NCBI RefSeq assembly: GCF_017876815.1
Contig: NZ_JAGIOS010000002.1
Location: forward strand, 1,230,001-1,262,000
Direction of reading: 5' to 3'
DNA: 32,000 nucleotides
Source: Sinorhizobium meliloti
GTDB taxonomy: Bacteria; Pseudomonadota; Alphaproteobacteria; Rhizobiales; Rhizobiaceae
Of this stretch, positions 11,235 through 26,505 are shown one piece after another. Position 1 is the first letter of the stretch, and each line of letters opens with the position of its first letter. The position numbers were made by a program, and so were the translations under genes. The notes beneath the pieces were generated by a model. That model had not been told where the DNA came from and did not search any database. It saw only the letters and a list, made by a program, of their open reading frames with translations.

Positions 11235-11254
11235 CCCCCGGCCGGGAAGGGGTT
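11233..11254 (+). terminator. weak hairpin at the end of the aps operon
   Basis: AACCCC (11233-11238) pairs with GGGGTT (11249-11254) and overlaps the TAA. There is no U-tract. Confidence 0.25.
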
Positions 11255-11423
11255 GCGCGGTCGGCCGGTGTCAGCAGTGCAAATTGGCTCCGCAGATGAG
11301 CCCGGCATCGAACGGCCCGCAACCCCGCCCTTAGGTAGGTTGCACTGAAACAGTGAAACGACCTCGTTTTTTGAAACTGCGCATTCCGAACGGAAAACGA
11401 CAGACACCTGTCCGGCACTGCTT

Positions 11424-11726: not shown

Positions 11727-11889
11727 AATTGCAACTCCCCGTTTTTTGGTTGTGAAGGAAGGTTAGCCGAAAGGATTTAATTCACGGTCGAGGAAAAGCC
11801 GACAATTCGCCGGGATTGCGCATCAGGCCCTTAACCATTCGGCCTGTCGCGCCTGATTTGGAGTTGCTGCCGAACCGGCCCAGCAGCCG

Positions 11890-12960
11890 TCAATTTTCGA
11901 CCTTGTTGCTGAAATGCGCGTTGCCGAGGCCAGTCCCGATCGTCAGGATCCCCCAACTCGATGCATTCTGCACGAAGGGTATCTGCGACAGACCTTGCAC
12001 GACGGCGTCGTTGTGCATGATCACGAAGGTCTCGTGATCGCCGATTTGCGGAATGGCGTCCTTAAGGGCGGCGGGCAGGTTGAAATGCTCGCTTTCCCAG
12101 TTGCCGCCCGGCAGGTTCTGGCCGCCGCGAAGGATCGAGCCATCCTCGTTGATCACACCGGGGCAGGCCACGCCGATGACCGGCGCCGGCGCGAGGTCTG
12201 CCTTGTCCGCCTTGGCTATAAGCTTCTCGATCATGCCGATGAGCCCCTCGATGGTCGTGCTTCTGTTGGGCTTGTCATCCGCATGGCGCCAGATATCCGA
12301 TTTCCAGACCTTGGCCTTGGAGAGATCGGTTTCATCCTTCAGGTGCAGCTCGACTATGCCCACGCGGATATTGGTGCCGCCGATGTCGATGGCGAGGATC
12401 GCCTTGTGTCCCTTCAGCATCCAGGCGGGCATGAGATGCGCGGCACCGATAAGTCCCGCATCATCCGGATGGTGAACGATAGGGGAGAGTTCGATCTTGA
12501 TGCCTTCAGCCTTCAGTAGCACCATTGCCCGGGCAATGGCCAATTCACCTACTGCGCTTCCCCGGAAGCCTCCGCCGATTACCACGCGTTCCGTATTCTT
12601 CCAGTTCTTTTGTTGCAGAAACCGTTCGAGAACGCTGGCGAGTTCGCCGGCGAAATCGTCGACCGCACCCATGATCAGGGCGGCCGCCTCCTTGTCGTCG
12701 CCGCGCAGAAGGGCATCGACTTGCTTTTTGGACAGATCCTGGGTCAAAGCCTGCCCCAGCGGATCGTCGCCGCCTTTGCGCACGCGTTTGCGCCACGCGT
12801 CGAGCTTCTCCTGGAAGGCAAATTTGTTGGCCCTGTCGCCAAGGAAGCCGTCGCCGTCACGCAGCTCCAGATTATAATCGTCAACCGTCACCGACGGCAG
12901 ATCGCTGGCCCCATGAATGAGCGGGACGCCATTTCGTTTTTCGTTCGCGGATCTGCCCAC
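11890..12960 (-). CDS. ASKHA/ROK-like sugar kinase homolog with swapped domain order
   Basis: I place the start at GTG 12960 (GGGAGG 4-5 nt upstream), giving 356 aa. The track ORF extends to 13425 through R/S-rich sequence that overlaps the divergent M42 gene. C-terminal half carries AIDIGGTNIRVG, GVACPGVI, MHNDAVVQG and TIGTGLG. N-terminal half carries GDDKEAAALI..., VVIGGGF and DAGLIGAAHL. Confidence 0.75.
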   Translation of the reverse strand: MGRSANEKRNGVPLIHGASDLPSVTVDDYNLELRDGDGFLGDRANKFAFQEKLDAWRKRVRKGGDDPLGQALTQDLSKKQVDALLRGDDKEAAALIMGAVDDFAGELASVLERFLQQKNWKNTERVVIGGGFRGSAVGELAIARAMVLLKAEGIKIELSPIVHHPDDAGLIGAAHLMPAWMLKGHKAILAIDIGGTNIRVGIVELHLKDETDLSKAKVWKSDIWRHADDKPNRSTTIEGLIGMIEKLIAKADKADLAPAPVIGVACPGVINEDGSILRGGQNLPGGNWESEHFNLPAALKDAIPQIGDHETFVIMHNDAVVQGLSQIPFVQNASSWGILTIGTGLGNAHFSNKVEN

Positions 12961-13134
12961 GCAACCTCCCGAGCTTCGCCTCGCTGGACTTGCCGAATAG
13001 CTGAGTACCTTACAACGTAGCGGGCGGTGCGATGTTCCCGTCCGCGACTTTCGATACGCGCGTGACGATCTGCGGGAGCCCGTCGCTTCGGTAACATTGT
13101 TGACGCGGGCATCCATGCTTGCGACAACGCATTC

Positions 13135-14292
13135 ATGCAGACACCGATCAATATCGACCCGGAATATCTCACCAGCCGGCTGAAAGCTCTGCTCGACATT
13201 GCGAGCCCCACCGGCTTCACCGATGAGGCGGTGCGCTACACGGCGCGTGAGCTCGAGCGCCTCGGCCTTGAAGTCAAGCTGACCCGCCGGGGTGCGATCC
13301 GCGCTCTTCGGCCGGGGGCTGCCGAGCGGCCGGCCCGCGGGATCGTCTCGCACTTGGACACCCTCGGCGCGCAGGTGAAGGCGCTGAAGGAAAACGGCCG
13401 CCTCGAACTGGTATCGATCGGGCACTGGTCGGCACGGTTCGCGGAGGGGGCTCGCGCCTCGATCTTTTCCGGCAAGGGCACCTATCGCGGCTCAATTCTC
13501 CCTCTGAAAGCTTCCGGTCACACCTTCAACGAGGAGGTCGACACGCAACTGACAGGCTGGCGCCATATCGAGCTGCGCGTCGATGCGCTCGCCCGCGACC
13601 GCAACGACCTGGTGCAGCTCGGAATAGACGTCGGCGACATCGTCGCCATCGATCCGCAGCCGGAATTCCTCGAGAACGGGTTCATCGTTTCGCGGCATCT
13701 CGACGACAAGGCGGGGGTCGCCATCATGCTTGCGGCGCTTGAGGCCATGCAGCGTGAGAAGGTGGACACGCCGGTCGACACCTATTGGCTCTTCACCATC
13801 GGCGAGGAAGTAGGTGTAGGCGCGTCAGCGGCAATCGTCCCGGAAATCGCCTCGCTGGTGGCGATAGACAACGGCACGACCGCGCCGGGCCAGAATTCGG
13901 ACGAGTTCGGCGTGACTCTCGCAATGGCGGACCAGACGGGACCTTTCGACTATCACCTCTCAAAAAAGCTTTACGAGCTTTGCGGCGAGCATGGCATCCG
14001 CGTCCAGAAGGACGTCTTCCGCTACTACCGTTCCGATGCCGCTTCCGCGGTCGAGGCGGGGCACGACGTCCGCACGGCCCTTCTCACTTTCGGTGTCGAC
14101 GCGTCGCACGGCTATGAGCGTATTCACCTCCATGCCCTGATGTCCGTTGCGAAGCTCGCGGTGTATCACACGGCAAGCGAGGTCCAGATCGAGCGCGACG
14201 CCGAGGAGGTCTCCGGCCTTCGGGGCTTTACCCGGCAGAAGGTACGACAGGCCGAGCAGGATTTGAAGGCGGACGAGCCGGACGTATCCTGA
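13135..14292 (+). CDS. M42-family metallo-aminopeptidase/hydrolase, probably the NAGGN-associated type
   Basis: 385 aa. M42-like blocks SHLDTLG, SRHLDDKAGVA, TIGEEVGVGAS and VDASHGYER. The link to NAGGN is inferred from asnO-ngg lying 7.5 kb downstream. Confidence 0.8.
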   Translation: MQTPINIDPEYLTSRLKALLDIASPTGFTDEAVRYTARELERLGLEVKLTRRGAIRALRPGAAERPARGIVSHLDTLGAQVKALKENGRLELVSIGHWSARFAEGARASIFSGKGTYRGSILPLKASGHTFNEEVDTQLTGWRHIELRVDALARDRNDLVQLGIDVGDIVAIDPQPEFLENGFIVSRHLDDKAGVAIMLAALEAMQREKVDTPVDTYWLFTIGEEVGVGASAAIVPEIASLVAIDNGTTAPGQNSDEFGVTLAMADQTGPFDYHLSKKLYELCGEHGIRVQKDVFRYYRSDAASAVEAGHDVRTALLTFGVDASHGYERIHLHALMSVAKLAVYHTASEVQIERDAEEVSGLRGFTRQKVRQAEQDLKADEPDVS

Positions 14293-14343
14293 TGCGCCTT
14301 GCTTTCAATCGGACTCACTACCGCATCCGACTTGCCTTCATCC

Positions 14344-14366
14344 GCCTGCCGGTCCGACCGGCAGGC
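14344..14366. terminator. perfect 9-bp-stem hairpin after the M42 gene
   Basis: GCCTGCCGG-TCCGA-CCGGCAGGC, 52 nt after the stop. There is no U-tract on either strand. Confidence 0.45.
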
Positions 14367-14666
14367 CGAATGCCCCGAGCGCCATCCACACTGCCATGGC
14401 AACCATCATCAGGTTCTCGATCAGCGAGACGAATCCGAGAGGAACGTTGCTCGATCCACCGTGGCTGCGAGGCCTACCGGGTAGCGCGGCAATCGAAAGC
14501 AGCTGTCGATTGCCGGATTATTTTGCCTCTGTGACCGGCATAACTTATCGCAAGTCAACAGTTCCAATTCGCCGTGGAACAGTAGTCTTGACCATTTTGC
14601 AACGGTCTTTGTCCCGACCGAAAAGGGCGGAAACAGACGAGATGTTTCGCCTCGCACCATACTCCG

Positions 14667-14888
14667 TTAGACGGCTGCCTGCTTGTCTCCCGCGAGAGTG
14701 TACGCCACGAGCGCATTTGCATGGCCGTGGCCCATTCCGTGTTCGCTCTTCAGCAGATCGACGAGTTCCATGTGCTTTGCTGGATAGTGCTTTCGCACGA
14801 GCGCCTGCCAATCACTGATCGGACGGCCGTATTTCTTCTCGATCGATGGAAAATAGGAAGCAGGCCCTTTGATCTTCTCGGTGGTCAT
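14667..14888 (-). CDS. DUF4287 domain protein
   Basis: 73 aa. ...GPASYFPSIEKKYGRPISDW...HGMGHGHANALV matches my memory of DUF4287. It has an ATGA overlap with the upstream VOC gene. Confidence 0.75.
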   Translation of the reverse strand: MTTEKIKGPASYFPSIEKKYGRPISDWQALVRKHYPAKHMELVDLLKSEHGMGHGHANALVAYTLAGDKQAAV

Positions 14889-15370
14889 AGCGTGTCACCT
14901 CCTTTTCGTGCCGCATCGATCGCAGCTACGTCGATTTTCCTCATCGACATCATCGCGTCGAATGCGCGTTTTGCTTGTTCGCCACCTGCTGCAAGCGCGT
15001 CCATTAGAGTGCGAGGTGTGATCTGCCACGATACGCCCCACTTATCCTTGCACCAGCCGCATTCGCTTTCCTGACCGCCATTGCCGACGATGGCGTTCCA
15101 ATAGCGATCTGTTTCTTCCTGATCCTCGGTGCTGATCTGGAATGAGAAAGCTTCGCTGTGCTTGAATGTGGGGCCGCCGTTCAATCCGATGCAAGCGACA
15201 CCTGCCACCGTGAACTCCACGACCAGCACGTCTCCCTCCTCTCCGTCGGGGTATTTGCCGGGCGCGCGAATGACGGCTCCGATCTTGCTGTCTGGGAAGG
15301 TGTCCGCATAGAAGCGGGCGGCTTCCTCAGCGTCCTTGTCGTACCATAGACAAATGGTGTTCTTAGACAT
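14885..15370 (-). CDS. VOC/glyoxalase-fold protein, PhnB-like (3-demethylubiquinone-9 3-methyltransferase domain family)
   Basis: 161 aa. N-terminus ICLWYDKDAEEAARFYADTFPDSKI and the block CGWCKDKWGVSWQI are typical of this family. AGGAGGA lies 7 nt upstream of the ATG. Confidence 0.8.
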   Translation of the reverse strand: MSKNTICLWYDKDAEEAARFYADTFPDSKIGAVIRAPGKYPDGEEGDVLVVEFTVAGVACIGLNGGPTFKHSEAFSFQISTEDQEETDRYWNAIVGNGGQESECGWCKDKWGVSWQITPRTLMDALAAGGEQAKRAFDAMMSMRKIDVAAIDAARKGGDTL

Positions 15371-15652
15371 CGCGTCGTCCTCCTGGTCGTTGTCCTTCAG
15401 ATCGAGAGCCCGACCTGATGATACGATGACGCACCAGCCGCAACCGATCCGACATCGTCATCATCAAAAATCGGTGCTCTCTTTCGATCCATCTCGTTTT
15501 GTGGACCGAACGCCTCGGGCCGAGGCAACGTCGATCGCCTTTGCGCCATTTAGAGGGTCACCATGGGCGGGGCTTCGTCGAGGGGCATCCTCTCTATGTC
15601 GCGCTCGATGGAGGGTCTGTAATTCAATCATGATAAATCATTGCAAGGCGAA

Positions 15653-15670
15653 TATTTATCGTTATAAATA
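15653..15670. promoter_or_regulatory. AT-rich inverted repeat TATTTAT-N4-ATAAATA upstream of the peptide ABC operon
   Basis: Perfect 7-bp arms, 41 nt upstream of ATG 15711. The near-palindrome ATGATAAATCAT sits at 15630-15641. It could be an operator (for example for the operon's GntR) or simply -10-region AT-richness. Confidence 0.35.
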
Positions 15671-15710
15671 GCCCCTCGCGAACTGAAGCCAAATCGAAAG
15701 GATCTTCCCC

Positions 15711-17264
15711 ATGAAGAGGCTGTTTCGGAGCGCCATCGCCTTGGCCGCTCTTGCTTTTGCAGGGGCCGCCGCAGCGCAGACTCCGCCCGATGTTCTCGTC
15801 GTTGGCCAGATTGCCGAGCCGCAGTCTCTGGACCCGCATACGGTGACCGCAACCAATGACTTCCGCATTCTGGTCAACGTCTATGATGGCCTGGTCCGTT
15901 TCAAGGACGGTACATTGGAGGTCGAGCCGGCGCTTGCGGAAAGCTGGAAAATCTCGGACGATGGCAAGACTTATACGTTCACGCTAAGGCAGGGGGTGAA
16001 GTTCCACGACGGTTCGAATTTCGATGCCGAGGCGGTGAAGTTCAACTTCTACCGCATGCTGAAGAAGGACCATCCGTTCTACGACACCGGGCCATTCCCG
16101 CTTTCCTTCAACTTCGCCTCCGTCGAAGCGGTTAACGTGCTGGATGAGCATACGGTCGAGTTCAAGCTCAGCGAAGCCTTTGCGCCGTTCCTTTCAAATC
16201 TAGCCTATCCCACGGGTCTGATCGTTTCGCCGGTCGCCGTGGAAAGACATGGCAAGGAATATGGCCGCAGCCCGTCGGGGACCGGCCCGTTCAAATTCGT
16301 CGAGTGGCTGTCGAACCAGCGTGTCGTCGTGGAGCGCAATCCGGACTACTGGGATGGCGCCGCGAAGCTTCAGGCCGTCGTCTTCCGCCCCATCACCGAC
16401 GCCAACACCCGCGTCGCCGAGATGATGGCTGGCGGTATCGACGTGATGGTCGAGGTGCCGCCGGACAATCTCGCGACCTTTGAGCAGGATGCCAATTTTG
16501 CCGTGGCCGAGCAGGCGGGGCCACATGTCTGGTTCACCATCCTGAACACCAAGCAGGGCCCCTTTGCCGACAAGCGCGTGCGCCAGGCGGCCAATTATGC
16601 GGTGAACAAGCAAACGCTGGTCGACGACGTGCTGCGGGGAACGGCGACGGTCGCGGCCGGCCCGATACCGCCCGCCTTCAACTGGGTGGAAAGCTCGGTG
16701 GAGCCCTATGCCCATGATCCCGAAAAGGCCAGGGCACTGCTCGCGGAAGCCGGCGTCGAAAATCCGCAGGTGACGTTCTACGTCACCGAAGGCGGCTCGG
16801 GCATGCTCGATCCGATCACCATGGGTGCGGCGATCCAGGCGGATCTCCAGGCTGTCGGCTTCAAGGTCAAGATCGAAACCTACGAGTGGAACACCTTCCT
16901 TGGCCGCGTAAATCCGGGCCTCGAGGGCAAGGCGGACATGGCCGAGATGGCCTGGATGACAAACGATCCGGATACCGTCCCCTATCTGACGTTGCGCACC
17001 GATGCCATGCCCGACAAGGGAGGCTTCAACTCCGGCTACTATTCCAATCCGCAGCTGGACGAGCTTCTGGAAAAGGCGCGCAGGTCCACCGACCAGGCCG
17101 AACGCGGCAAGCTCTATGGCGAGGTCCAGTCGATCGTGCATGACGACGCGCCGTGGCTCTTCGTCGCCAACTGGAAGCAGAACGCGGTGACGACCGCCGC
17201 CGTCAAGGGTTTCAAGCTGCAGCCCTCCTTCCTCCTCGATCTCCATGGCGTGACGAAAGAGTAG
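15711..17264 (+). CDS. ABC transporter substrate-binding protein, family 5 (peptide/nickel/opine type, DppA-like)
   Basis: 517 aa. Signal peptide ...ALAFAGAAAAQ. The length and blocks such as LVRF.DG.LEPALAESW are typical of SBP family 5. Confidence 0.9.
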   Translation: MKRLFRSAIALAALAFAGAAAAQTPPDVLVVGQIAEPQSLDPHTVTATNDFRILVNVYDGLVRFKDGTLEVEPALAESWKISDDGKTYTFTLRQGVKFHDGSNFDAEAVKFNFYRMLKKDHPFYDTGPFPLSFNFASVEAVNVLDEHTVEFKLSEAFAPFLSNLAYPTGLIVSPVAVERHGKEYGRSPSGTGPFKFVEWLSNQRVVVERNPDYWDGAAKLQAVVFRPITDANTRVAEMMAGGIDVMVEVPPDNLATFEQDANFAVAEQAGPHVWFTILNTKQGPFADKRVRQAANYAVNKQTLVDDVLRGTATVAAGPIPPAFNWVESSVEPYAHDPEKARALLAEAGVENPQVTFYVTEGGSGMLDPITMGAAIQADLQAVGFKVKIETYEWNTFLGRVNPGLEGKADMAEMAWMTNDPDTVPYLTLRTDAMPDKGGFNSGYYSNPQLDELLEKARRSTDQAERGKLYGEVQSIVHDDAPWLFVANWKQNAVTTAAVKGFKLQPSFLLDLHGVTKE

Positions 17265-17280
17265 CTCGTGCACCGGAAAT

Positions 17281-17311
17281 CGCCGCCGGCATGTTCGTTC
17301 TGCCGGTGGCG
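17281..17311 (+). promoter_or_regulatory. intercistronic hairpin after the SBP gene
   Basis: CGCCGCCGGCA (17281-17291) pairs with TGCCGGTGGCG (17301-17311). The stem is 11 bp with one G-U pair and the loop is 9 nt. It lies between the SBP stop (17264) and the permease start (17342). Confidence 0.5.
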
Positions 17312-17341
17312 ACCAACACGGACCTCCCCGGAGGGTTATCC

Positions 17342-18289
17342 ATGCAGGCCTATGTCCTGAAGCGGCTTGTTGCCGTGGTGCCCGTCCTGTTCGGGCTTTC
17401 CATCATCGTCTTTCTCGTCATGGCTCTCATTCCTGGCGACACGGCGACGGCCATTCTCGGCTCCTATGCGACGCCGGAAAACGTCGAGCGCATCAATCGT
17501 GACCTCGGACTCGACAAGCCGCTGGTGCAGCAATACGCGATCTGGATCGGCAACGTGCTGCAGGGCGATTTCGGCCGGTCCTTCGCGCTGAACCGGCCCG
17601 TGCTCGACGAGGTGCTGGAACGGTTTCAGGCAACGCTGGTGCTGGCCGGCGTATCGCTGGTCCTGTGCTCGGTGATCGGGCTTCTCGCAGGTGTGGTCTC
17701 CGCCGTGCGCCAGTTCGGCTGGGCCGACCGCGTCATCACCTTCTTCGTGCTGGCCGGCATCTCCACGCCTTCGTTCTGGCTCGGGCTCCTGCTCATCTAC
17801 CTCTTCGCCGTTCATTGGCGCATCCTGCCGGCCTCCGGCATGTACGCCGTCTACGGCGGCGGTGACCTCAAGGATCTTCTGCTCCATCTGATCCTGCCGG
17901 CCGCCACGCTCGCCGTCGTTGCCGCCGGCGTCATAGCGAGGCTGACGCGCGGAGCGATGCTGGAGGTCCTGAGGCAGGACTATGTGCGCACGGCCCGCGC
18001 CAAGGGGCTGCCCGAGCGGCGTGTGATCTACGCCCATGCCTTCCGCGCGGCGCTGGTCAGCGTCGTTCCCGCGATAGGCATCCAGGCGGGCTTCGTGCTC
18101 GGCGGCGCCGTCTATGTCGAGACGGTGTTCCAGTGGCCCGGCATCGGCGCGATGCTCGTGAAGGCGATTTCTACGCGCGATATCCTGCTGGTACAGGGCG
18201 GCGTGCTCGTCGTGGCGGCGAGCTACGTCCTGTTCAACCTTCTCGCCGACGTCGTGCAGTCGATGCTCGATCCGAGGATTCGCACATGA
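17342..18289 (+). CDS. ABC transporter permease (DppB-like)
   Basis: 315 aa from ATG 17342, with GGAGGG upstream. N-terminus MQAYVLKRL. EAA-loop region YVRTARAKGLPERRVIYAHAFRAAL. Confidence 0.9.
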   Translation: MQAYVLKRLVAVVPVLFGLSIIVFLVMALIPGDTATAILGSYATPENVERINRDLGLDKPLVQQYAIWIGNVLQGDFGRSFALNRPVLDEVLERFQATLVLAGVSLVLCSVIGLLAGVVSAVRQFGWADRVITFFVLAGISTPSFWLGLLLIYLFAVHWRILPASGMYAVYGGGDLKDLLLHLILPAATLAVVAAGVIARLTRGAMLEVLRQDYVRTARAKGLPERRVIYAHAFRAALVSVVPAIGIQAGFVLGGAVYVETVFQWPGIGAMLVKAISTRDILLVQGGVLVVAASYVLFNLLADVVQSMLDPRIRT

Positions 18290-20088
18290 GCGCGCTCGCA
18301 GCATCGCCGGCTCCGCGGAGGGGATCGGGACGGATCACGTCCTGGCACCTGCTGCTCAACAACCGGCTCGCCACGGGAGGGCTCATGCTGCTCGGACTGA
18401 TCCTGTTGCTGATTGTTCTGGTCCCGATCCTGCCGCTGCCCGATCCGGATGCCACGGCACCCGTCGACCGGTTGCAGCCGGTGCTGACCGCCGGACATCT
18501 TCTCGGCACGGATCAGCTCGGGCGGGACATACTGAGCCGCCTGCTTTGGGGCACGCGGGTCTCGATCGCGGTCGGTTTCGCCGCGACCCTCATTGCGGCC
18601 GGGATCGGATCGGCGATCGGCATCATCGCCGGTTACGCCGGCGGGCGCACCGATAACGCCATGATGCGCGGCATCGACATGCTGATGGCCTTTCCCTACA
18701 TCCTGCTGGCGCTCGCGATCGTCGCCGCCCTCGGGCCCGGACTGATGAATGCTCTCTATGCGATCGCCCTCGTAAATATTCCGTTCTTCGCCCGGAATGT
18801 GCGCGGCGTGACGCTCGGCTACGCCCATAGCGAATTCGTCGACGCGGCGCGGCTCTCCGGTAAGGGACATCTGTCTGTTATTCTCACCGAAGTTCTGCCG
18901 AACGTGATGCCGGTCATCGTCATCACCATGTCGACGACGGCAGGCTGGATGATCCTCGAGACGGCCGGGCTCAGCTTCCTCGGCCTCGGCGCGCAGCCGC
19001 CCCAGGCCGACCTCGGCTCCATGCTGGGCGAGGGGCGAGCGCAGCTCTTCACGGCCCCGCATGTCTCGGTCGTGCCGGGCGCGATGATCTTCCTGATCGT
19101 CATCAGCCTGAACGTTCTCGGCGACGGAATCCGCGACGTGCTGGACCCGCGGCTTCGCTCGGGCGCTCTCGCGCGGCCGGGGCCGGTCACCGAAGTCGCC
19201 CCCGACCGCACCGCGCCGGCAAACACGGCTGAAGGTGCTTGCCTGGCGATCGAGAAGCTGGAAACCGGCTTCCGGAGGGGAAAGGAGATCGTGCCGGCGG
19301 TTCGGGACGTCTCGCTGCATGTGGAGCCGGGCGAATGCCTTGGGCTTATCGGCGAGAGCGGCTCGGGCAAGAGCGTCACCGCCCTGTCCGTCATGGGCCT
19401 CGTCGCCTCGCCGCCGGGTGTGATCCGCAACGGTGCGGTCTATCTCGGAAACGACGATGTACTTTCCATGCCTGAAACCAGGCTGATCGCGAAACGCGGC
19501 AGCCGCGTCGCCTATGTGTTCCAGGACCCGCTCACGACGCTGCATCCAATGTATCCCGTCGGGCGGCAGGTGGAGGAGGCGATCGCAGCGCATCAGCCGG
19601 TCAGGGCGGCCGAACGGCGGGAAAAAGCCGTCGCGCTTCTGGAAAAGGTGGGTATCCCGGACGCCCGCGAGCGGTCGGTGCATTATCCCCACCAGCTTTC
19701 CGGCGGTCAGCGCCAGCGTGTCGGCATCGCGATGGCGCTCGCCAACGATCCGGAGATCATCATTGCGGACGAGCCGACGACCGCGCTGGACGTGACGGTT
19801 CAGGCCCGCATCCTGGAGCTCCTGCGCGATCTTCAGCGCGAGCAGGGCATGGCGCTGCTCTTCATCACCCACGACTTCGGCATCGTTTCGGAATTCTGCG
19901 ACCGCGTGGCCGTGATGAAGGATGGCGAGATCGTCGAAACCGGTAAAACCCGGGAGGTACTCGCCAATCCGCAGCATCCCTATACGAAGCGGCTGATCGC
20001 CTGCGTGCCCGAGCTCGGAACGGGCGAGCGCTTCCTGGATCGTGTTGCCGGGCTTTTTGCCGGCGGCAAGGCGGAGGTGGCGCAATGA
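18286..20088 (+). CDS. fused ABC permease (DppC-like) and ATP-binding domain (DppD-like)
   Basis: 600 aa with an ATGA overlap with the previous gene. The permease part runs to ...GDGIRDVLDPRLRS. A linker of about 30 aa follows. The NBD has GESGSGKSV, LSGGQRQRVGIA and IIIADEPTTALD. Confidence 0.88.
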   Translation: MSALAASPAPRRGSGRITSWHLLLNNRLATGGLMLLGLILLLIVLVPILPLPDPDATAPVDRLQPVLTAGHLLGTDQLGRDILSRLLWGTRVSIAVGFAATLIAAGIGSAIGIIAGYAGGRTDNAMMRGIDMLMAFPYILLALAIVAALGPGLMNALYAIALVNIPFFARNVRGVTLGYAHSEFVDAARLSGKGHLSVILTEVLPNVMPVIVITMSTTAGWMILETAGLSFLGLGAQPPQADLGSMLGEGRAQLFTAPHVSVVPGAMIFLIVISLNVLGDGIRDVLDPRLRSGALARPGPVTEVAPDRTAPANTAEGACLAIEKLETGFRRGKEIVPAVRDVSLHVEPGECLGLIGESGSGKSVTALSVMGLVASPPGVIRNGAVYLGNDDVLSMPETRLIAKRGSRVAYVFQDPLTTLHPMYPVGRQVEEAIAAHQPVRAAERREKAVALLEKVGIPDARERSVHYPHQLSGGQRQRVGIAMALANDPEIIIADEPTTALDVTVQARILELLRDLQREQGMALLFITHDFGIVSEFCDRVAVMKDGEIVETGKTREVLANPQHPYTKRLIACVPELGTGERFLDRVAGLFAGGKAEVAQ

Positions 20089-20882
20089 CGGGTGCTGCCA
20101 TTCAGGTTCGGGACCTTTCGAAGACCTTCGGCGGAGGCCGCAGCTTTTTCGGAAAGGCGAAGCATGAGATAAGGGCCGTGAAAGCGGTGTCGCTGGATGT
20201 CGCGCGGGGCGAGACCCTCGCTGTCGTCGGCGAAAGCGGGTCCGGCAAGAGCACGCTTGCACGCATGCTCGCCGGCCTAGAGGAACCGACATCCGGCAGC
20301 ATGCTGATCGCAGGCAGGGATGCGGCGGCACTGCGGCGATCCGGCCCGAGGGCCTTCGGCAAGACGATCCAGTATGTCTTCCAGGATCCGGTCGCTTCGC
20401 TGAACCCGCGCAAGACGATCCAGGAAATCCTGGAGACGCCACTGAAGCTTTTGTGCGGCTACGAAGCCCCGCGCCGTCGCGCCCGGATGCAGGAGCTGCT
20501 GCACGCGGTGCAGATGCCGGAGGATACGCTCTTGCGCTACCCGCACGAGTTTTCCGGCGGGCAGGCGCAGCGGATCGCGATCGCCCGGGCGCTCGCGACG
20601 GAGGCCGAGATCATCGTGCTCGACGAGCCGGTGAGCGCGCTCGACGTGTCCATCCAGGCGCAGGTCCTGCTTCTGCTGCGCGATCTGAAGCAGCGCTTCG
20701 GCCTCTCCTATCTCTTCATCAGCCACGATCTGGCGGTGGTCGAGGCGATCTCGGATCGGGTGGCGGTGATGTATTTCGGCGAGGTGGTCGAGACTGCACC
20801 GGCCGCCCGCCTTTTTACCGACCCTGAGCACGCCTATACACGACAGCTTGTCGCAAGCGGCCCCCGCATCAGGAAAGAGTGA
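20085..20882 (+). CDS. ABC transporter ATP-binding protein (DppF-like)
   Basis: 265 aa with an ATGA overlap. Motifs GESGSGKST, FSGGQAQRIAIA and IIVLDEPVSALD. Confidence 0.92.
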   Translation: MTGAAIQVRDLSKTFGGGRSFFGKAKHEIRAVKAVSLDVARGETLAVVGESGSGKSTLARMLAGLEEPTSGSMLIAGRDAAALRRSGPRAFGKTIQYVFQDPVASLNPRKTIQEILETPLKLLCGYEAPRRRARMQELLHAVQMPEDTLLRYPHEFSGGQAQRIAIARALATEAEIIVLDEPVSALDVSIQAQVLLLLRDLKQRFGLSYLFISHDLAVVEAISDRVAVMYFGEVVETAPAARLFTDPEHAYTRQLVASGPRIRKE

Positions 20883-20888
20883 CGGTTC

Positions 20889-21671
20889 ATGCCAGTGGTC
20901 ATCGAAAAGAAAAAGGAAACCGGTGGAGATGGCCAGCGTCTCTTCGTCCCGGCCGAGCGTACGAAACGCAGACCTGAGGCGATCGCCGATCGCATCAAGG
21001 ATTACATCCGCTCGGAAGGATTGGGGCCGGGCGACCGTCTTCCGCAGGAGCGCGACCTGATCGACACGTTCAAGGCGGCCAAGGGGACCGTACGCGAGGC
21101 GATGAAAGCGCTGGAGACGCAGGGCCTCGTCTTCACGCGCAGCGGCCCGGGAGGCGGCGCCTTCGTCGCCAAGCCCTCGGCGCGGCACGCCATGGAGCTT
21201 CTGTCGACCCACTTCTTCTTCGATCAGCCGAGCATTTCCGACATATACGCCATGCGCAAGGTGCTGGAGCCGGAGGTAGCGGCGCTCCTGGCCGGCAGGG
21301 TGACGCGGGAGGAACTCATCGCCCTCGAAAACACGATCCGCATCTACGATCATCCCCCCGCCGATCTGGACGAGCAGTATCGCCAGCGCGTCGCCGAGCT
21401 CGACTTTCATTCGATGCTGGCGCAACTCTGCCCGAATCCGCTTCTCGGCTTCGTCTGCGGGCTCATGCACAATCTGCTGCGCGAACTCCCGGCCGCACGA
21501 GCGATCTATGCCGACCCGACGTCGCTTTCGCGAGAAACGGGCTTGTCGTTCCAGTACCGGCTCATGGCCGCGCTCAAGGACGGGCGGTCGGAGGATGCGC
21601 GCGTGATCGCCGCCGAGCATATGGCTTTCGCCGAAAGCTACATGCTCGAACGTGCAGCCGCGACCAAGTGA
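20889..21671 (+). CDS. GntR-family regulator, FadR subfamily (FCD domain)
   Basis: 260 aa. Winged-helix block LPQERDLIDTFKAAKGTVREAMKALETQGLV followed by an all-helical C-terminal domain. It starts 6 nt after the ATPase stop, so it is probably co-transcribed. Confidence 0.88.
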   Translation: MPVVIEKKKETGGDGQRLFVPAERTKRRPEAIADRIKDYIRSEGLGPGDRLPQERDLIDTFKAAKGTVREAMKALETQGLVFTRSGPGGGAFVAKPSARHAMELLSTHFFFDQPSISDIYAMRKVLEPEVAALLAGRVTREELIALENTIRIYDHPPADLDEQYRQRVAELDFHSMLAQLCPNPLLGFVCGLMHNLLRELPAARAIYADPTSLSRETGLSFQYRLMAALKDGRSEDARVIAAEHMAFAESYMLERAAATK

Positions 21672-21717
21672 CGCCCATGGCGGAACTGTCGGCCCGGTGG
21701 GGCATTGAGTTTTCATA

Positions 21718-21759
21718 GCGCCGTCAGGGCCGCGGATCGATCCGCGGCCCTGACGGCGC
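21718..21759. repeat. 42-bp perfect palindrome (21-nt arms, no spacer)
   Basis: GCGCCGTCAGGGCCGCGGATC|GATCCGCGGCCCTGACGGCGC, verified base by base. It lies 46 nt after the GntR stop and 35 nt before the asnO ATG. There is no U-tract on either side. Confidence 0.9.
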
Positions 21760-21794
21760 GTCTCGTACCAACAATGGAGGTTTCGACCCGGTTC

Positions 21795-23570
21795 ATGTGT
21801 GGAATTTGTGGAGAAGTCAGGTTCGATGGCGGTTCGCCGTCGGTTACGGCAGTCTCGATCATGGCGGACGTCCTTGCCCCTCGCGGGCCGGATGCGTCAG
21901 GCGTGGTGGTGCGCGGGAATGTCGGACTGGGGCACCGGCGATTGCGTATTCTCGACCTCTCCGACAAGTCGCAGCAGCCGATGGTCGATTCCGACCTCGG
22001 CCTATCGCTCGTCTTCAACGGCTGCATCTACAATTTTCGCGAACTGAGGTTGGAGCTTGAAGAGAAGGGTTACAGATTCTTCTCGTCCGGCGATACCGAG
22101 GTCATCCTGAAGGCGTGGCATGCCTGGGGCGAGGAATGCGTCTCGCGTTTCCATGGCATGTTCGCATTCGTCATTCACGAGCGCGACAGCGGACGCGTCG
22201 TCATGGCGCGCGACCGTTTCGGGATCAAGCCGCTCTATATCGCCGAAGTACAGGGCGCCTTGCGCTTCGCTTCCGCCTTGCCCGCGCTCGTCAAGGCGGG
22301 CGGCGTCGACACCTCGATCGACGTGGCCGCGCTCCACAACTACATGACCTTCCACGCGGTCGTGCCGCCGCCGCGCACGATCCTGAACGGCGTTCGCAAG
22401 CTGCCGCCTGCGACCCTTCGCGTTTATGAACGTGACGGCAGCTTCGAGGACCGGCGCTACTGGGATCCGCCCTATCGCCGCCAGGCAGGTGACTCAGCCA
22501 TAAGCCGCGAGGAATGGCAGGAACAGCTCCTCGACGCGCTGCGCATTGCCGTGAAGCGTCGCATGGTCGCCGACGTGCCGGTCGGCGTGCTTCTTTCCGG
22601 CGGCGTCGATTCCAGCCTGATCGTCGGGCTTCTCGCGGAAGCGGGCCAGCGCGGTCTCATGAGCTTCTCCGTCGGCTTCGAGGAGGCAAACGGCGAAAAG
22701 GGCGACGAATTCGTCTATTCGGACCTGATCGCCGGTCACTTCGGTACGGATCATCGCAAGATATTCGTCCCCTCCGCCGATCTGATGGGGGCCTTGCCCG
22801 GGACCATCGCCGCAATGTCCGAGCCGATGGTCTCCTATGACAATGTCGGCTTCTATCTGCTCTCGAAGGAGGTTTCGAAGCACGTCAAGGTCGTACAGTC
22901 GGGGCAGGGTGCGGACGAGGTCTTCGGAGGTTACCACTGGTACCCGCCGCTGATGAACTCCAACGACGTCGTTGCGGATTACGGCAAGGCCTTCCGCGAC
23001 CGTTCCCACGCGGTCTTGACCACCCAGTTGTCGGATGCCTGGATTGCCGACCATGACGTGAGTAGCGACTTGCTGAACGAGCACCTCCTGCGCGAGGGTG
23101 CCGATACGCCCGTCGATCAGGCGCTCCGCCTCGACAGCAACGTTATGCTCGTCGACGACCCCGTGAAGCGGGTCGACAATATGACCATGGCCTGGGGCCT
23201 CGAAGCGCGCGTGCCTTTCCTCGACCACGAGCTGGTGGAACTTGCCGCGCGCATGCCCCCGGAGGAGAAGCTGCGCGACGGCGGCAAGGGCATTCTGAAG
23301 GACGTGGCGCGCCGGGTCATTCCGAGCGAGGTCATCGACCGCAAGAAAGGCTATTTCCCGGTGCCGCAGCTCAAATATATCGCCGGTCCGTATCTCGATC
23401 TGATCCGCGATACCTTGCGCTCGCAGAAGGCGCGCGAGCGGGGCCTCTTCCAAGATGCTTATCTTGACCGCCTGTTCCAGGAGCCGTCGGATCACATCAC
23501 GCCGCTGCGCGGCTCCGAACTGTGGCAGGTCGGACTTCTTGAAATGTGGCTTGAAGCGCAGGGGGTATAG
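21795..23570 (+). CDS. asnO: asparagine-synthase-family glutamine amidotransferase (N-acetylglutaminylglutamine amidotransferase)
   Basis: 591 aa from ATG 21795, chosen so that the protein begins MCGICG (Cys2 Ntn nucleophile). PP-loop motif LLSGGVDSS. It is followed directly by ngg, as in S. meliloti SMb20481-82. Confidence 0.88.
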   Translation: MCGICGEVRFDGGSPSVTAVSIMADVLAPRGPDASGVVVRGNVGLGHRRLRILDLSDKSQQPMVDSDLGLSLVFNGCIYNFRELRLELEEKGYRFFSSGDTEVILKAWHAWGEECVSRFHGMFAFVIHERDSGRVVMARDRFGIKPLYIAEVQGALRFASALPALVKAGGVDTSIDVAALHNYMTFHAVVPPPRTILNGVRKLPPATLRVYERDGSFEDRRYWDPPYRRQAGDSAISREEWQEQLLDALRIAVKRRMVADVPVGVLLSGGVDSSLIVGLLAEAGQRGLMSFSVGFEEANGEKGDEFVYSDLIAGHFGTDHRKIFVPSADLMGALPGTIAAMSEPMVSYDNVGFYLLSKEVSKHVKVVQSGQGADEVFGGYHWYPPLMNSNDVVADYGKAFRDRSHAVLTTQLSDAWIADHDVSSDLLNEHLLREGADTPVDQALRLDSNVMLVDDPVKRVDNMTMAWGLEARVPFLDHELVELAARMPPEEKLRDGGKGILKDVARRVIPSEVIDRKKGYFPVPQLKYIAGPYLDLIRDTLRSQKARERGLFQDAYLDRLFQEPSDHITPLRGSELWQVGLLEMWLEAQGV

Positions 23571-23571
23571 C

Positions 23572-25359
23572 ATGAAGAAGTCGCGCGAGATCGCATTGCC
23601 GCGTCAACGCAGCAAGGGCACCAAGGCGGTCACGCACCGGCTGAACCGGTTGCGGACGCATACTCAGCCAGGGCGCGATGCCGAGGGGTCGAGAACCGCC
23701 GGAGGGGCGAAGCGGGACGTCGTGCTCGACTGCGGTTGGGGCAGGCTCCTGTTCGCGCAGACGTTTTCCGACGACGAGAAACTCTTGTCCGAATTGCGCG
23801 AGGAAGCCCCCTCGAGCCGGGACATTGCCTTCTACGTACGGGACCCGCATGTGCTTCTGTCACGGGCGCCACAGGAGATTTTCCTCGACCCCTCCCACAC
23901 CTACCGGCTCGACCTGTGGACCTACCGTGCAAACACCCGCCGCACGCGAGGCATCACGATCCGCAGGCTCGCGTCGGAAGCCGATGGAGACGGCATCAAC
24001 CGGGTCTATGCCGCTTGCGGCATGGTCCAGATCCGATCCGATTTCTTCTCGTCCGAGCGGGACGACCGGTCGCTGACCTATTTCGTGGCGCAGGACGACG
24101 CCACGGGCGAGATCGTCGGCACGGTCACCGGCATCGACCACCAGAGACTGTTCGACGATCCGGACCGCGGCGCTTCGCTGTGGTGTCTCGCGGTGCATCC
24201 GCAGGCGCGCCAGCCGGGCATCGGCGAACATCTGGTCCGCAAGCTTGCCGAGCATTTCCAGGCACGCGGCCTTTCCTATGTCGACCTGTCGGTGATGCAC
24301 GACAATACGTTGGCGATCGGGCTCTATGAGAAGCTGAATTTCCGGCGCATGCCGCTTTTCGCCATCAAGCGGAAGAATGCGATCAATGAGAAGTTTTTCG
24401 CGATGCCACATCAATCCTACGATGCGCTCAATCCCTATGCGCGGCTGATCGTGGATGAGGCGACGCGGCGCGGGATCCATGTCGAAATCACCGATGCGGA
24501 AGGCGGGTTTTTCCGCCTGTCCCATGGCGGACGCTCGATTCATTGCCGCGAGAGCCTATCGGAACTGACTTCCGGCGTCGCGATGTCGATCTGTGACGAC
24601 AAGGCGATTACCCGCCGCATGGTCTCCGCGGCAGGGCTGGTCGTCCCGGACCAGATCGAAGTGGATGAAAACGGCAAGGCCATTCAGGACTTCCTAAAGA
24701 AGCACGGCAAGCTGGTGGTCAAGCCGGCACGCGGCGAGCAGGGCCGGGGCATCTCGGTCGGCATCACGACGATGGAAGCGCTGGAGGAGGCAATCGCCTC
24801 GGCCCGTCAGGTCTGCGACCGGGTATTGCTGGAAGCCTTTTTCGAGGGAGAGGACCTCCGCCTCGTGATCATCGACTATACGCTTGTTGCCGCCGCGGTT
24901 CGCTTGCCGCCGCGGGTCATTGGCGACGGCCGCAGCAAGATCGCTTCCCTCATCGGGAAACAGTCGCGCCGCCGCGAGGCCGCTACGGGCGGCGAAAGCC
25001 GGATTCCGCTCGATGCGGAGACGGATCGCTGCCTTGGGGAGCAGGGTCTCGATCTCGAAACGATACTGGAAGAGGGACGGGAGATTACGGTTCGCAAGGC
25101 CGCCAATCTCCATGCGGGCGGTTCGATCCACGACGTGACGGAGATCGTGCACCCCGATCTTGTCGAGGCCGCCTGCCGCGCGGCGCGGGCAATCAACATC
25201 CCGGTGGTCGGCATCGACCTCATGGTCCGCGATCCGGCGGAACCGGACTACGTCTTCATCGAGGCCAACGAGCGCCCCGGCCTGGCAAATCACGAACCAC
25301 AGCCGACGGCGGCGAGCTTCATAGAGCTGCTTTTCCCCGGCAGCCGCACGGCAGTGTAG
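23572..25359 (+). CDS. ngg: bifunctional GNAT acetyltransferase / ATP-grasp ligase (N-acetylglutaminylglutamine synthetase)
   Basis: 595 aa. The ATG is 1 nt after the asnO TAG, with AGGGGG upstream. GNAT block VHPQARQPGIGEHLVRKLAEHFQARG. ATP-grasp blocks LVVKPARGEQGRGISV and FIEANERPGL. Confidence 0.85.
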   Translation: MKKSREIALPRQRSKGTKAVTHRLNRLRTHTQPGRDAEGSRTAGGAKRDVVLDCGWGRLLFAQTFSDDEKLLSELREEAPSSRDIAFYVRDPHVLLSRAPQEIFLDPSHTYRLDLWTYRANTRRTRGITIRRLASEADGDGINRVYAACGMVQIRSDFFSSERDDRSLTYFVAQDDATGEIVGTVTGIDHQRLFDDPDRGASLWCLAVHPQARQPGIGEHLVRKLAEHFQARGLSYVDLSVMHDNTLAIGLYEKLNFRRMPLFAIKRKNAINEKFFAMPHQSYDALNPYARLIVDEATRRGIHVEITDAEGGFFRLSHGGRSIHCRESLSELTSGVAMSICDDKAITRRMVSAAGLVVPDQIEVDENGKAIQDFLKKHGKLVVKPARGEQGRGISVGITTMEALEEAIASARQVCDRVLLEAFFEGEDLRLVIIDYTLVAAAVRLPPRVIGDGRSKIASLIGKQSRRREAATGGESRIPLDAETDRCLGEQGLDLETILEEGREITVRKAANLHAGGSIHDVTEIVHPDLVEAACRAARAINIPVVGIDLMVRDPAEPDYVFIEANERPGLANHEPQPTAASFIELLFPGSRTAV

Positions 25360-25366
25360 CGGCCCG

Positions 25367-26437
25367 TCATTCCCGCGGCATCTCGCTGTCCATCAGCGCA
25401 TCGAGCGGACCGGTCAGCGCCGTTCTCGGCGGCACGAGCTGCGGCTCGATCATGTGTATCTGCAAGGATGCTCTCGGTTCCTCGATCACTTCGAAGGCCT
25501 TGGCTATCATTCCCTCGATATTCTGCCGGATCATGATGACGGGGAAGGGGAGGAAGGAGGCGAACGGGTCGTAATCGTAGCAGCCGACGACGAGATCCGT
25601 GAAATTTTCGAGCGGATGCTCGGCCATGAAACGCAGCAATCCCTCGAAATTGATCGATGAGTTGACGAAGAAGCCGCGCGGCAGTTTTCCATGCTGTTCG
25701 TAGAAGGCTTCGAACGCCTTTCGCGCGTTGTCGGCGGCATAGCCGGTCGGCCATATGCACTCGTCCGGATCGCTTCCCAGCAGCTCCTGCTTCACCGCCC
25801 GAAATCCGCGGATGCGCTCGCGCGTGGCGTGATCATCGCGCCCGCCGAACAGGTAGAGATCGTCGGGCTCGAGCGGCCGCTCGGCGGGGAAGTGGCGGAT
25901 GATCGCCTCGGTCAGGAGGCGGCCGCCTTCGAAATTGTCGCTGATGACCGACGGCACTTTCGTACCGGGGAGATCGATGTTGATATGCCTTAGGCCGGCC
26001 GCTTCGCAGACCTCGTGCACGCCATCGGGATCCGTCGCGCCGCAGATAAACAATTCGTCGATGGAATAGGAGATCAGCGTTTCGGCCGTCCTGCGCTCCT
26101 CCTCCGGGTCCCGGCTCGCACTGACAACGATCGGACATTGGCCCTTGCTACGCACATGCGCCTCGAAGGTCTGGGCAAGCGAAGAAAAGTAGCGGTTGTC
26201 GTGTACGGGCAGGAGCAGACCGACGAGGCCGGAACGGGAACTGCGTAGGCCCCGCGCTTGCCGGTTTGCAGTGTACTGGTGGGTTTCGGCGAGGCTTCGG
26301 ATGAGCTCCGCGGTGCTTTCCTTGATCCGTCGCTTGCGCCACGTGCCGTTTAGCACCGCACTGACGGTAGAGGGCGAACTTCCCGACAGCACCGAGAGAT
26401 CATAGATCGTCGCTTTTTTCCTGCCGCCGTTCGTCAT
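25367..26437 (-). CDS. LacI-family transcriptional regulator
   Basis: 356 aa from ATG 26437, with GGAGGAGG upstream. HTH block ATIYDLSVLSGSSPSTVSAVLNG. The rest is a periplasmic-binding-protein-like effector domain. Confidence 0.9.
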   Translation of the reverse strand: MTNGGRKKATIYDLSVLSGSSPSTVSAVLNGTWRKRRIKESTAELIRSLAETHQYTANRQARGLRSSRSGLVGLLLPVHDNRYFSSLAQTFEAHVRSKGQCPIVVSASRDPEEERRTAETLISYSIDELFICGATDPDGVHEVCEAAGLRHINIDLPGTKVPSVISDNFEGGRLLTEAIIRHFPAERPLEPDDLYLFGGRDDHATRERIRGFRAVKQELLGSDPDECIWPTGYAADNARKAFEAFYEQHGKLPRGFFVNSSINFEGLLRFMAEHPLENFTDLVVGCYDYDPFASFLPFPVIMIRQNIEGMIAKAFEVIEEPRASLQIHMIEPQLVPPRTALTGPLDALMDSEMPRE

Positions 26438-26505
26438 CTGACCTCCTCCAAACCCCGGAAAACCGATGCGCACGTTTCCTGGAATTGCTCTAGTGCCGAT
26501 TTCGG

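Follow-up and report, generated by a model that had tools for sequence, protein, structure and literature searches.

A peptide-type importer, a GntR regulator and an M42 peptidase linked to the N-acetylglutaminylglutamine amide synthesis genes of Sinorhizobium meliloti: a candidate route of uptake and breakdown

Introduction

Why should a peptide-type importer lie in the middle of a group of osmoprotectant genes? In a 32,000-nucleotide stretch of Sinorhizobium meliloti DNA (contig NZ_JAGIOS010000002.1, positions 1,230,001 to 1,262,000; in this manuscript, the window is this whole stretch), asnO and ngg, the two genes for synthesis of N-acetylglutaminylglutamine amide (NAGGN), lie on the same strand as the gene for an M42-family metallopeptidase, whose stop codon is 7.5 kb upstream of the asnO start. 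The interval holds an ATP-binding cassette (ABC) importer of the di/oligopeptide type and a regulator of the GntR family. Both termini of NAGGN are blocked, the first by an N-acetyl group and the second by an amide. A preliminary description of the locus, which also noted a DUF4287/VOC pair in the same interval, had proposed that the locus may encode a full NAGGN economy, with synthesis, re-uptake or scavenging, breakdown or maturation, and effector-responsive control.

A comparison of this locus with its relatives links the importer, its regulator and the M42 gene to the NAGGN genes, and places synthesis under a control of its own. Judging from the sequences, we think it an even call that the importer-GntR operon and the M42 peptidase provide an uptake-and-breakdown route for NAGGN or for a very close relative, such as N-acetyl-Gln-Gln. 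The genes asnO and ngg, by the reference to Sagot et al. 2010 given in PMC8070244, were first characterised in S. meliloti. Our literature search found no paper on NAGGN uptake, recycling, catabolism or transport, and none in which experiments establish what the M42 gene of the trio does.

Results

Genes and signals of the locus

Positions 13000-25500 of the window are 100% identical to several S. meliloti pSymB records, the GenBank product names agree, and profile searches recovered every gene named in the preliminary description at the place given for it. The features on which the argument turns are listed below under their strain 1021 names (that of SMb20478 is taken from PMC3687685 and those of SMb20481 and SMb20482 from Data Set S1 of PMC6180224, and the M42 gene corresponds to SMb20466 by coordinates).

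13135 to 14292, plus strand: M42 metallopeptidase of the NAGGN-associated family, orthologue of SMb20466 (TIGR03106, Peptidase_M42)
15625 to 15668, plus strand: importer promoter with candidate GntR operator (upstream-region alignments, palindrome scan)
15711 to 17264, plus strand: periplasmic family-5 solute-binding protein, SMb20476 (SBP_bac_5, 355 bits)
17342 to 18289, plus strand: DppB-like ABC permease, SMb20477 (BPD_transp_1_N and BPD_transp_1)
18286 to 20088, plus strand: fused DppC-like permease and DppD-like ATPase, SMb20478 (BPD_transp_1, ABC_tran, oligo_HPY)
20085 to 20882, plus strand: second, DppF-like ATPase, SMb20479 (ABC_tran and oligo_HPY)
20889 to 21671, plus strand: GntR-family regulator of the FadR/FCD type, SMb20480 (GntR winged helix-turn-helix and FCD)
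21682 to 21706, plus strand: EcfG/RpoE2-type general-stress promoter of asnO-ngg, GGAAC-N16-CATT (motif conservation)
21718 to 21759, plus strand: perfect 19-bp hairpin between the GntR gene and asnO (folding, comparative conservation)
21795 to 23570, plus strand: asnO, N-acetylglutaminylglutamine amidotransferase, SMb20481 (TIGR03104)
23572 to 25359, plus strand: ngg, N-acetylglutaminylglutamine synthetase, SMb20482 (TIGR03103; GNAT, ATP-grasp)

The synthesis of NAGGN by the products of asnO and ngg is an established function, and both proteins score far above the cut-offs of their families (AsnO, TIGR03104, 1037 bits against 570.1; Ngg, TIGR03103, 972.6 bits against 569). AsnO has GATase_7 and Asn_synthase domains and begins MCGICG, with a cysteine after the initiator methionine as in the glutamine amidotransferases of its class, and Ngg matches Acetyltransf_1 (GNAT) and ATP-grasp.

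SMb20476-80 form a five-gene operon in which the regulator gene is the last member. The binding-protein gene is followed by a gap of 78 bases, the next two junctions are 4-base overlaps, and the GntR gene starts 6 bases past the stop codon of the second ATPase. The importer has the complete composition of the family-5 (Dpp/Opp/Nik-type) systems, namely an SBP_bac_5 binding protein, two BPD_transp_1 permeases and two ATPases with ABC_tran and oligo_HPY domains, all in one operon, and the N-terminus of the binding protein resembles a Sec signal peptide. A ChvI-binding fragment has been located inside the SMb20478 gene of strain 1021 (PMC3687685).

Recurrent association of the importer with NAGGN genes

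Relatives of the locus were collected with the binding protein, which in a tblastn search of plasmids and chromids defined a group with at least 61-63% identity inside it and next matches below 37%. A genome scan seeded with an alignment of six orthologues gave more than 558 relatives, and the best 80 loci among these (binding protein 70-93% identical) were annotated by tblastn and by all-against-all clustering of open reading frames. The fusion of the DppC-like and DppD-like parts, which makes one 600-aa product, is retained in all 80 orthologous loci with a complete gene, and a GntR regulator of the same type adjoins the importer in 56 of the 80. An M42 gene of the TIGR03106 type lies within 10 kb of the importer in 21 loci (20 of the 66 with full flanks), and asnO and ngg are both present within this distance in 15 loci, all of which are among the 21. 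The M42-linked loci represent at least eight subclades of the binding protein and at least five gene orders, as follows.

Order (a), M42, importer, GntR, asnO, ngg: Sinorhizobium, Ensifer, Aquamicrobium, Brucella/Ochrobactrum, Falsochrobactrum, Pseudaminobacter
Order (b), asnO, ngg, M42, importer: Oricola, Hoeflea
Order (c), ngg and asnO divergent from importer-GntR-M42: Hoeflea sp., Flavimaribacter, a Rhizobiaceae metagenome-assembled genome (MAG)
Order (d), as (c) with DUF1028 added and M42 inverted: Tropicimonas
Order (e), importer-GntR-M42 with no asnO or ngg within 8-12 kb: Thalassospira, two MAGs, Devosia neptuniae, Agrobacterium salinitolerans, Klebsiella/Enterobacter plasmids

In order (e) the M42 gene is the last gene of the importer operon, since its annotated start overlaps the GntR stop codon by 4 bases (Devosia, Agrobacterium) or follows it after a 5-base gap (Klebsiella). 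The tree of the M42 proteins parallels that of the binding proteins, and the importer-linked M42 proteins all score above the TIGR03106 cut-off, with 415-585 bits. The number of subclades and orders, the parallel trees and the operon coupling together bear out the functional link of importer, GntR and M42 to the NAGGN genes that the preliminary description had supposed. We consider this link to be real but limited to certain lineages, mainly of the Alphaproteobacteria.

The same description had presented the separation of M42 from asnO-ngg as a trio split by an importer, and had noted that the three genes are adjacent in Pseudomonas and many other bacteria. Adjacent asnO-ngg-M42 trios were indeed confirmed, in Azospirillum and in a reverse sample of 80 loci, obtained from metagenomes with an M42 alignment headed by an Azospirillum sequence. 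Among the metagenome loci with at least 1.5 kb upstream, ngg lies directly upstream of M42 in 47 of 50, asnO-ngg is divergent in the other three, and no other recurring neighbour was found. The substrate of the M42 enzyme is thereby tied to the NAGGN pathway, since the metagenome M42 gene was found only next to ngg. The split itself is present in S. meliloti but is not peculiar to it, being the conserved order in Ensifer, Aquamicrobium, Brucella/Ochrobactrum, Falsochrobactrum and Pseudaminobacter, and the layout is more aptly viewed as a cluster of eight conserved genes that has acquired insertions in particular lineages.

Shinella has M42-asnO-ngg with no importer between them, an arrangement that could be taken for the ancestral one. 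A simple insertion of the importer into such a locus is disfavoured, because the Shinella M42 nests in a clade whose other members carry the importer. Loss of the importer in Shinella seems at least as likely as its gain elsewhere, although we hold this with low confidence, the tree being a neighbour-joining tree without support values.

Control of the importer and of asnO-ngg

The importer operon has a sigma-70-like promoter that is conserved across genera, with a -35 box TTGCAA at 15641-15646 and a -10 box TATAAA at 15663-15668, separated by 16 bases. Two copies of a 12-bp palindrome, TTATCATGATAA, lie at 15625-15636 and 15656-15667, one on each side of the -35 box and with an overlap into the -10 box. 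These are the only two sites in the 32-kb window; the palindrome was searched for upstream of M42 and of asnO and was not found there. In 1.76 Mb of related loci it has 138 matches with at most two mismatches, and 98 of these, spread over 67 of 86 loci, fall in the 250 nt that precede the binding-protein gene. It also occurs at the divergent promoter between GntR and M20 amidase genes in Rhodobacterales loci (L042, L052, L058, L066 and L069), at a distance of some 1.6 kb before the gene of the binding protein. This concentration at the importer promoters and at the divergent M20/GntR promoters makes the palindrome the putative operator of the GntR regulator. The regulator itself matches PF00392 with 53 bits and PF07729 (FCD) with 61 bits, and reaches the cut-off of none of the equivalogs to which it was compared (NanR, LldR, PdhR and others). 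A generic promoter and terminator scan gave counts at or below the shuffle expectation and missed both the importer promoter and the conserved promoter of asnO-ngg.

The latter promoter lies in the 123 bases between the GntR gene and asnO. Its motif, GGAAC-N16-CATT, is present 105-193 nt before asnO in 11 of 11 distinct loci of the Sinorhizobium/Ensifer/Shinella/Aquamicrobium/Brucella/Pseudaminobacter group, and it is kept in Shinella, where the gene upstream of asnO is M42 and not GntR. It has the form of published S. meliloti RpoE2 promoters, for example that of rpoE5 (PMC6180224, Table 1). In published microarrays, overexpression of RpoE2 raises asnO (log2 change 1.14, adjusted p = 2.5e-5) and ngg (0.73), and neither SMb20466 nor SMb20476-80 appears in the table of significant genes of these arrays (PMC6180224, Data Set S1). 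The RpoE2-type motif was not found upstream of M42 or of the binding-protein gene, and the two marks of the EcfG/RpoE2 regulon, promoter and RpoE2-dependent expression, were found for asnO-ngg only.

In the asnO leader region (window 21682-21797) the promoter is followed by the 19-bp hairpin, at the predicted 5' end of the mRNA, and then by a conserved ribosome-binding segment, GGAGGTTTCGACCC; the leader folds with -50.3 kcal/mol (z = -6.3). Nine species retain a hairpin at this place, and compensatory changes affect seven pairs. Termination of the importer transcript, stabilisation of the 5' end of the asnO mRNA, or both, are its likely roles. In Pseudaminobacter and Falsochrobactrum a T-run follows it, so that it may act as a terminator and also as a stabiliser or attenuator of the asnO mRNA. 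A search of positions 11000-26500 against Rfam gave no real family, only chance miRNA and snoRNA matches on the hairpin and elsewhere.

Taken with the published RpoE10 data on the DUF4287/VOC pair (see below), the separate promoters, the placement of the operator and the RpoE2 data divide the region from M42 to ngg into four independently controlled units, namely M42, VOC/DUF4287, importer-GntR and asnO-ngg. The proposal of a single effector-controlled locus fails on three of these observations, which are the RpoE2-type promoter that asnO-ngg possesses, the RpoE2 arrays, and the presence of the operator at the importer promoter only.

A second RpoE2-type motif (GGAACATCGCACCGCCCGCTACGTT) lies at 13014-13038 on the minus strand. 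It faces away from M42, toward the gene of the ROK-family "glucokinase" SMb20465 (11890-12960, minus strand), which is strongly induced by RpoE2 in the published arrays (log2 change 3.2). M42, a transcription unit separate from asnO and ngg, thus lies between two RpoE2-controlled units but is not listed as RpoE2-dependent.

The M42 peptidase and the binding-protein pocket

The profile check that the preliminary description had called for places the M42 protein in the NAGGN-associated family. It scores 595.1 bits (cut-off 397.75) against TIGR03106, the "osmoprotectant NAGGN system M42 family peptidase", with residues 8-349 aligned to positions 1-342 of the 343 of the profile, and Peptidase_M42 covers its full length. 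No signal peptide is visible, which points to a cytoplasmic enzyme. The closest solved structure is 2GRE (E = 1e-64), a Bacillus cereus protein called a "deblocking aminopeptidase" by the annotation of the entry and not by assay. The HxD, DD, EE, D and H metal-ligand motifs, read by eye, align with those of 2GRE and are invariant in an alignment of 11 sequences. The M42 deblocking aminopeptidases, which include Pyrococcus DAP/TET, are reported to act on N-acylated peptides; they have in common with our protein the peptidase family and the metal ligands, and any corresponding role of the TIGR03106 proteins would be read from their sequences.

The binding protein falls below the cut-offs of the NCBIfam equivalogs to which it was compared (DppA NF043070, 251.9 bits against 1005; GsiB NF011942, 260.2 against 594; NikA TIGR02294, 238.8 against 393), and far below that of OppA. 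Its best solved relatives are about 33% identical (GbpA/HbpA 3M8U, E = 4e-76; DppA 1DPP, E = 5e-68). In these alignments Arg355 of DppA, which is reported to contact the C-terminal carboxylate of the peptide, corresponds to Gly364 in the motif TEGGSGMLDP. The position of DppA Asp408 falls in a two-residue gap, and that of GbpA Asp432 is occupied by Asn418 in the motif AWMTNDPD. Both loops are essentially invariant in 86 orthologues, with Asn418 present in 85 of the 86. The Asp408 residue of DppA contacts the charged N-terminus of the dipeptide, and its replacement makes dipeptides unlikely ligands (PMC3295651). Because Asn (or a gap) and Gly stand in the places of Asp408 and Arg355, the loss of both DppA clamps would fit a ligand with neither terminus free, such as NAGGN; we regard this as suggestive only.

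Amidase partners and plasmid cassettes

Three kinds of hydrolase genes accompany the importer, a carbamoylase-type M20 amidase in 46 loci, DUF1028 in 26 and M42 in 24. The M20 amidase, which is divergent, matches TIGR01879 and has the L-carbamoylase 3N5F as its best solved relative; the N-carbamoyl-L-glutamate amidohydrolase ErtE is among its next-best NCBIfam relatives, with a score below the ErtE cut-off. The best solved relative of the DUF1028 protein is 2IMH, which itself has no assigned function. Given the palindrome at the M20/GntR promoters of Rhodobacterales, both enzymes appear to share the importer/GntR regulon (loci L042, L052, L058, L066 and L069; L035/L040). In Tropicimonas, M20, DUF1028, M42, importer, GntR, asnO and ngg all lie within about 14 kb.

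The plasmid members of order (e) include a cassette bounded by IS26 on pKOXM1B of Klebsiella michiganensis (L005, 11300-18950), which consists of a DUF1028 fragment, the importer, GntR and an M42 gene of the NAGGN type. Nine plasmids of K. michiganensis, K. pneumoniae and Enterobacter hormaechei carry it with 100% identity, among them plasmids of soil as well as of clinical isolates. In 5,426 complete Escherichia coli genomes the cassette was not found, the only matches being to IS26. On plasmid pDG3-1g of Agrobacterium salinitolerans (L089, 1618-11047), which is conjugative, a module of DUF1028, importer, FCD regulator and M42 lies beside a gene of the octopine/nopaline-dehydrogenase family and a LysR gene, a single case that hints at an opine-like context.

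The DUF4287/VOC pair and the junction after M42

Between M42 and the importer, the window has three further features:

14667 to 14888, minus strand: DUF4287 gene, SMb20474 (Pfam DUF4287)
14885 to 15370, minus strand: VOC/glyoxalase-like gene, SMb20475 (Pfam 3-dmu-9_3-mt)
15419 to 15458, minus strand: ECF42 (RpoE10) promoter of the VOC/DUF4287 operon (exact match to PMC6180224, Table 1)

SMb20475-74 is a published RpoE10 (ECF42) operon (PMC6180224), whose printed promoter coincides exactly with 15419-15458. The pair is missing from the M42-importer junction in 8 of the 11 loci with the same layout. On these two grounds it is an unrelated insertion outside the NAGGN system. Replicons of Rhizobium, Shinella, Roseibium, Ralstonia and Cupriavidus carry the VOC gene with an unusual degree of DNA conservation (76-92% identity), and a copy of its protein (79% identical) is encoded 3 kb upstream of an orthologous importer in Azospirillum argentinense (L007).

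In 8 of the 11 loci of order (a), M42 ends 140-250 bp before the binding-protein gene, so that only the five-gene importer-GntR operon lies between M42 and asnO. Larger gaps between M42 and importer occur only in S. meliloti (1.4 kb in the window), S. medicae (4.6 kb) and Ensifer sp. LCM 4579 (7.7 kb). In strain 1021 the stretch that corresponds to window positions 14305-14460 is enlarged by another 8.1 kb (locus L088, 17481-25574), with genes for a two-component system (HisKA_3 kinase and LuxR-type response regulator), a GDSL lipase and a NodU/CmcH-like carbamoyltransferase. Roughly one in four of the pSymB records listed for S. meliloti share this break point. Insertions thus have a hot spot at the junction that follows M42.

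Discussion

The full NAGGN economy of the preliminary description is upheld in one part, the functional link of the importer, GntR, M42 and asnO-ngg, and has to be given up in another, common regulation; DUF4287/VOC is unrelated to it. What the linked genes might do together can be set out as follows. Synthesis by asnO-ngg would be switched on separately, by the general-stress promoter of the RpoE2/EcfG type. The periplasmic protein SMb20476 would capture NAGGN or a close blocked glutamine dipeptide from the medium, where it may have been leaked by the cell itself or released by neighbours after an osmotic downshift, and the ABC system would import it. In the cytoplasm, M42 would cleave the imported or stored dipeptide. 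The GntR protein, bound to the two 12-bp palindromes, would repress the importer promoter until it is released by the substrate or by a breakdown product. Synthesis would then follow stress, and uptake and breakdown the substrate. A catabolic rather than synthetic role of M42 is suggested by the importer-GntR-M42 cassettes that have no asnO or ngg within 8-12 kb, above all by the IS26 copy.

In the relatives with further hydrolases, the M20 amidase might remove the N-acetyl group and DUF1028 the C-terminal amide, which is speculative. The corresponding wider claim is that the importer regulon as a whole serves uptake and catabolism of NAGGN, with M42 splitting the dipeptide and, in many Alphaproteobacteria, M20 and DUF1028 deblocking it, and that NAGGN is traded as a nutrient and osmolyte in saline soils and seas; we advance it tentatively, at somewhat less than even confidence.

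Several observations weigh against a NAGGN-specific uptake route. The commonest hydrolase partner of the importer is the carbamoylase-type amidase (46 loci), so that N-carbamoyl or other N-acyl substrates are possible. No NAGGN gene lies within 10 kb of the orthologous importer in 59 of the 80 loci, and the importer is present in none of the 30 metagenome asnO-ngg-M42 loci with long flanks, NAGGN producers in general thus doing without it. The invariant pocket probably means one ligand common to all orthologues, and this may be a compound commoner than NAGGN. The pocket comparison is itself built on alignments at about 33% identity, one loop of which contains an indel. In S. meliloti, moreover, M42 is outside the importer operon, with variable insertions of 1.4 to 9.5 kb between them.

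Some of these points also favour the alternative that the importer carries another small N-blocked or Gln/Glu compound, for instance an N-carbamoyl/N-acyl amino acid or dipeptide, or an opine-like conjugate. M42, M20 and DUF1028 would then be general enzymes, and the link to asnO-ngg would reflect shared glutamine/peptide metabolism. Such an alternative accommodates the higher counts of M20 and DUF1028 than of M42, the many loci with no nearby NAGGN gene, the opine-dehydrogenase-like gene beside the A. salinitolerans module and a pocket that is invariant in all contexts. We nevertheless consider it rather unlikely, in that the importer-linked M42 proteins all come from a family otherwise found only beside ngg, asnO-ngg adjoin the importer in 15 loci and in four orders, and no hydantoinase or other carbamoyl-pathway gene recurs at these loci. 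A different use of the same genes would be precursor supply, the importer bringing in ordinary Gln/Glu peptides from which M42 frees glutamine for NAGGN synthesis under osmotic stress. The importer directly precedes asnO-ngg and shares its strand, glutamyl aminopeptidases are found among the M42 enzymes, and NAGGN synthesis is costly in glutamine, at three glutamines per molecule (PMC8070244). Precursor supply is improbable all the same, because the pocket is without the Asp and Arg clamps of DppA for free termini, the importer and M42 are not among the RpoE2-induced genes, unlike asnO-ngg, a conserved terminator-like hairpin stands between the two units, and importer-GntR-M42 cassettes occur with no synthesis genes within 8-12 kb.

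The remaining two alternatives concern the association itself. If the importer-GntR block had merely become fixed between M42 and asnO in one lineage and spread by horizontal transfer, no functional link would be needed; the closest relatives with the same order (binding proteins 83-93% identical) may indeed owe it to common descent or to transfer, the block is missing from the M42-asnO-ngg locus of Shinella, and the junction tolerates unrelated insertions. The association is found, however, in distant subclades (binding proteins 70-75% identical) and in other gene orders, GntR and M42 are translationally coupled, and the observed frequency of 26% compares with about 0.4% expected by chance (for a 20-kb segment of a 5-Mb genome; a rough estimate, not computed), which together make a mere bystander quite improbable, a little more so than precursor supply. 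At the other extreme, a single system could be envisaged in which GntR senses NAGGN status and coordinates synthesis, uptake and breakdown, DUF4287/VOC included. All of the genes lie within 12 kb and seven are on one strand, but the palindrome is missing upstream of asnO and M42, the RpoE2-type promoter of asnO-ngg is conserved even where GntR is not present (Shinella), and most related loci lack DUF4287/VOC, which forms an RpoE10 operon. We judge this the least probable of the arrangements considered.

An uptake-and-breakdown route for NAGGN would have partial counterparts among known systems. In Pseudomonas aeruginosa, PA3458-PA3461 (a MarR regulator plus the trio; ggnABC in P. syringae) comprises the same three enzyme families, with NAGGN synthesis of osmotic relevance and an adjacent dedicated regulator, and its M42 protein, PA3461, is termed a hypothetical glutamyl aminopeptidase (PMC8070244). 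There, the synthesis operon has M42 in third place, the MarR repressor of asnO is divergent, and there is no importer. In S. meliloti, by contrast, M42 is upstream and separate, the FCD-type GntR regulator appears to act on the importer only, and asnO-ngg is under a general-stress sigma factor. The importer has the same fold and subunit set as the E. coli DppABCDF and GsiABCD systems and the GbpA(HbpA)-Dpp system of the Pasteurellaceae, from which it differs by its identity of only about 33%, the permease-ATPase fusion, scores below the equivalog cut-offs, and Asn and Gly at the positions of Asp408 and Arg355.

The nearest functional parallel is on the same replicon, the ehuABCD-eutABCDE cluster of pSymB for ectoine uptake and catabolism (ehuA = SMb20427), reported by Jebbar et al. 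in 2005. This cluster likewise combines an ABC importer and its periplasmic binding protein with catabolic hydrolases and a regulator of the GntR superfamily, and is induced by its substrate rather than osmotically. Its binding protein is of family 3, its enzymes are unrelated, S. meliloti is not known to make ectoine, and its substrate is proven, whereas here the substrate is inferred. The uptake genes of our locus also sit against synthesis genes, unlike those of Ehu/Eut. Importers that recover the cell's own leaked osmolyte are known in producers, namely TeaABC for ectoine in Halomonas and GgtABCD for glucosylglycerol in Synechocystis. These belong to other transporter families and are osmotically induced, and the importer described here has no RpoE2 promoter and is outside the RpoE2 regulon.

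The synthesis of NAGGN has been understood since 2010, and candidates can now be named for its uptake, sensing and breakdown. These are the importer SMb20476-79, the putative sensor and repressor SMb20480 with its palindrome, and as many as three hydrolases, namely M42, the carbamoylase-type M20 amidase and DUF1028. What becomes of NAGGN, and what the third trio gene does, can thereby be put as questions about single proteins or single mutants. If the proposed route is correct, DUF1028 would gain a function, the binding protein would be a member of the peptide family specialised for a doubly blocked ligand, and NAGGN would join ectoine and glycine betaine as a compound that is both an osmolyte and a shared nutrient of the environment.

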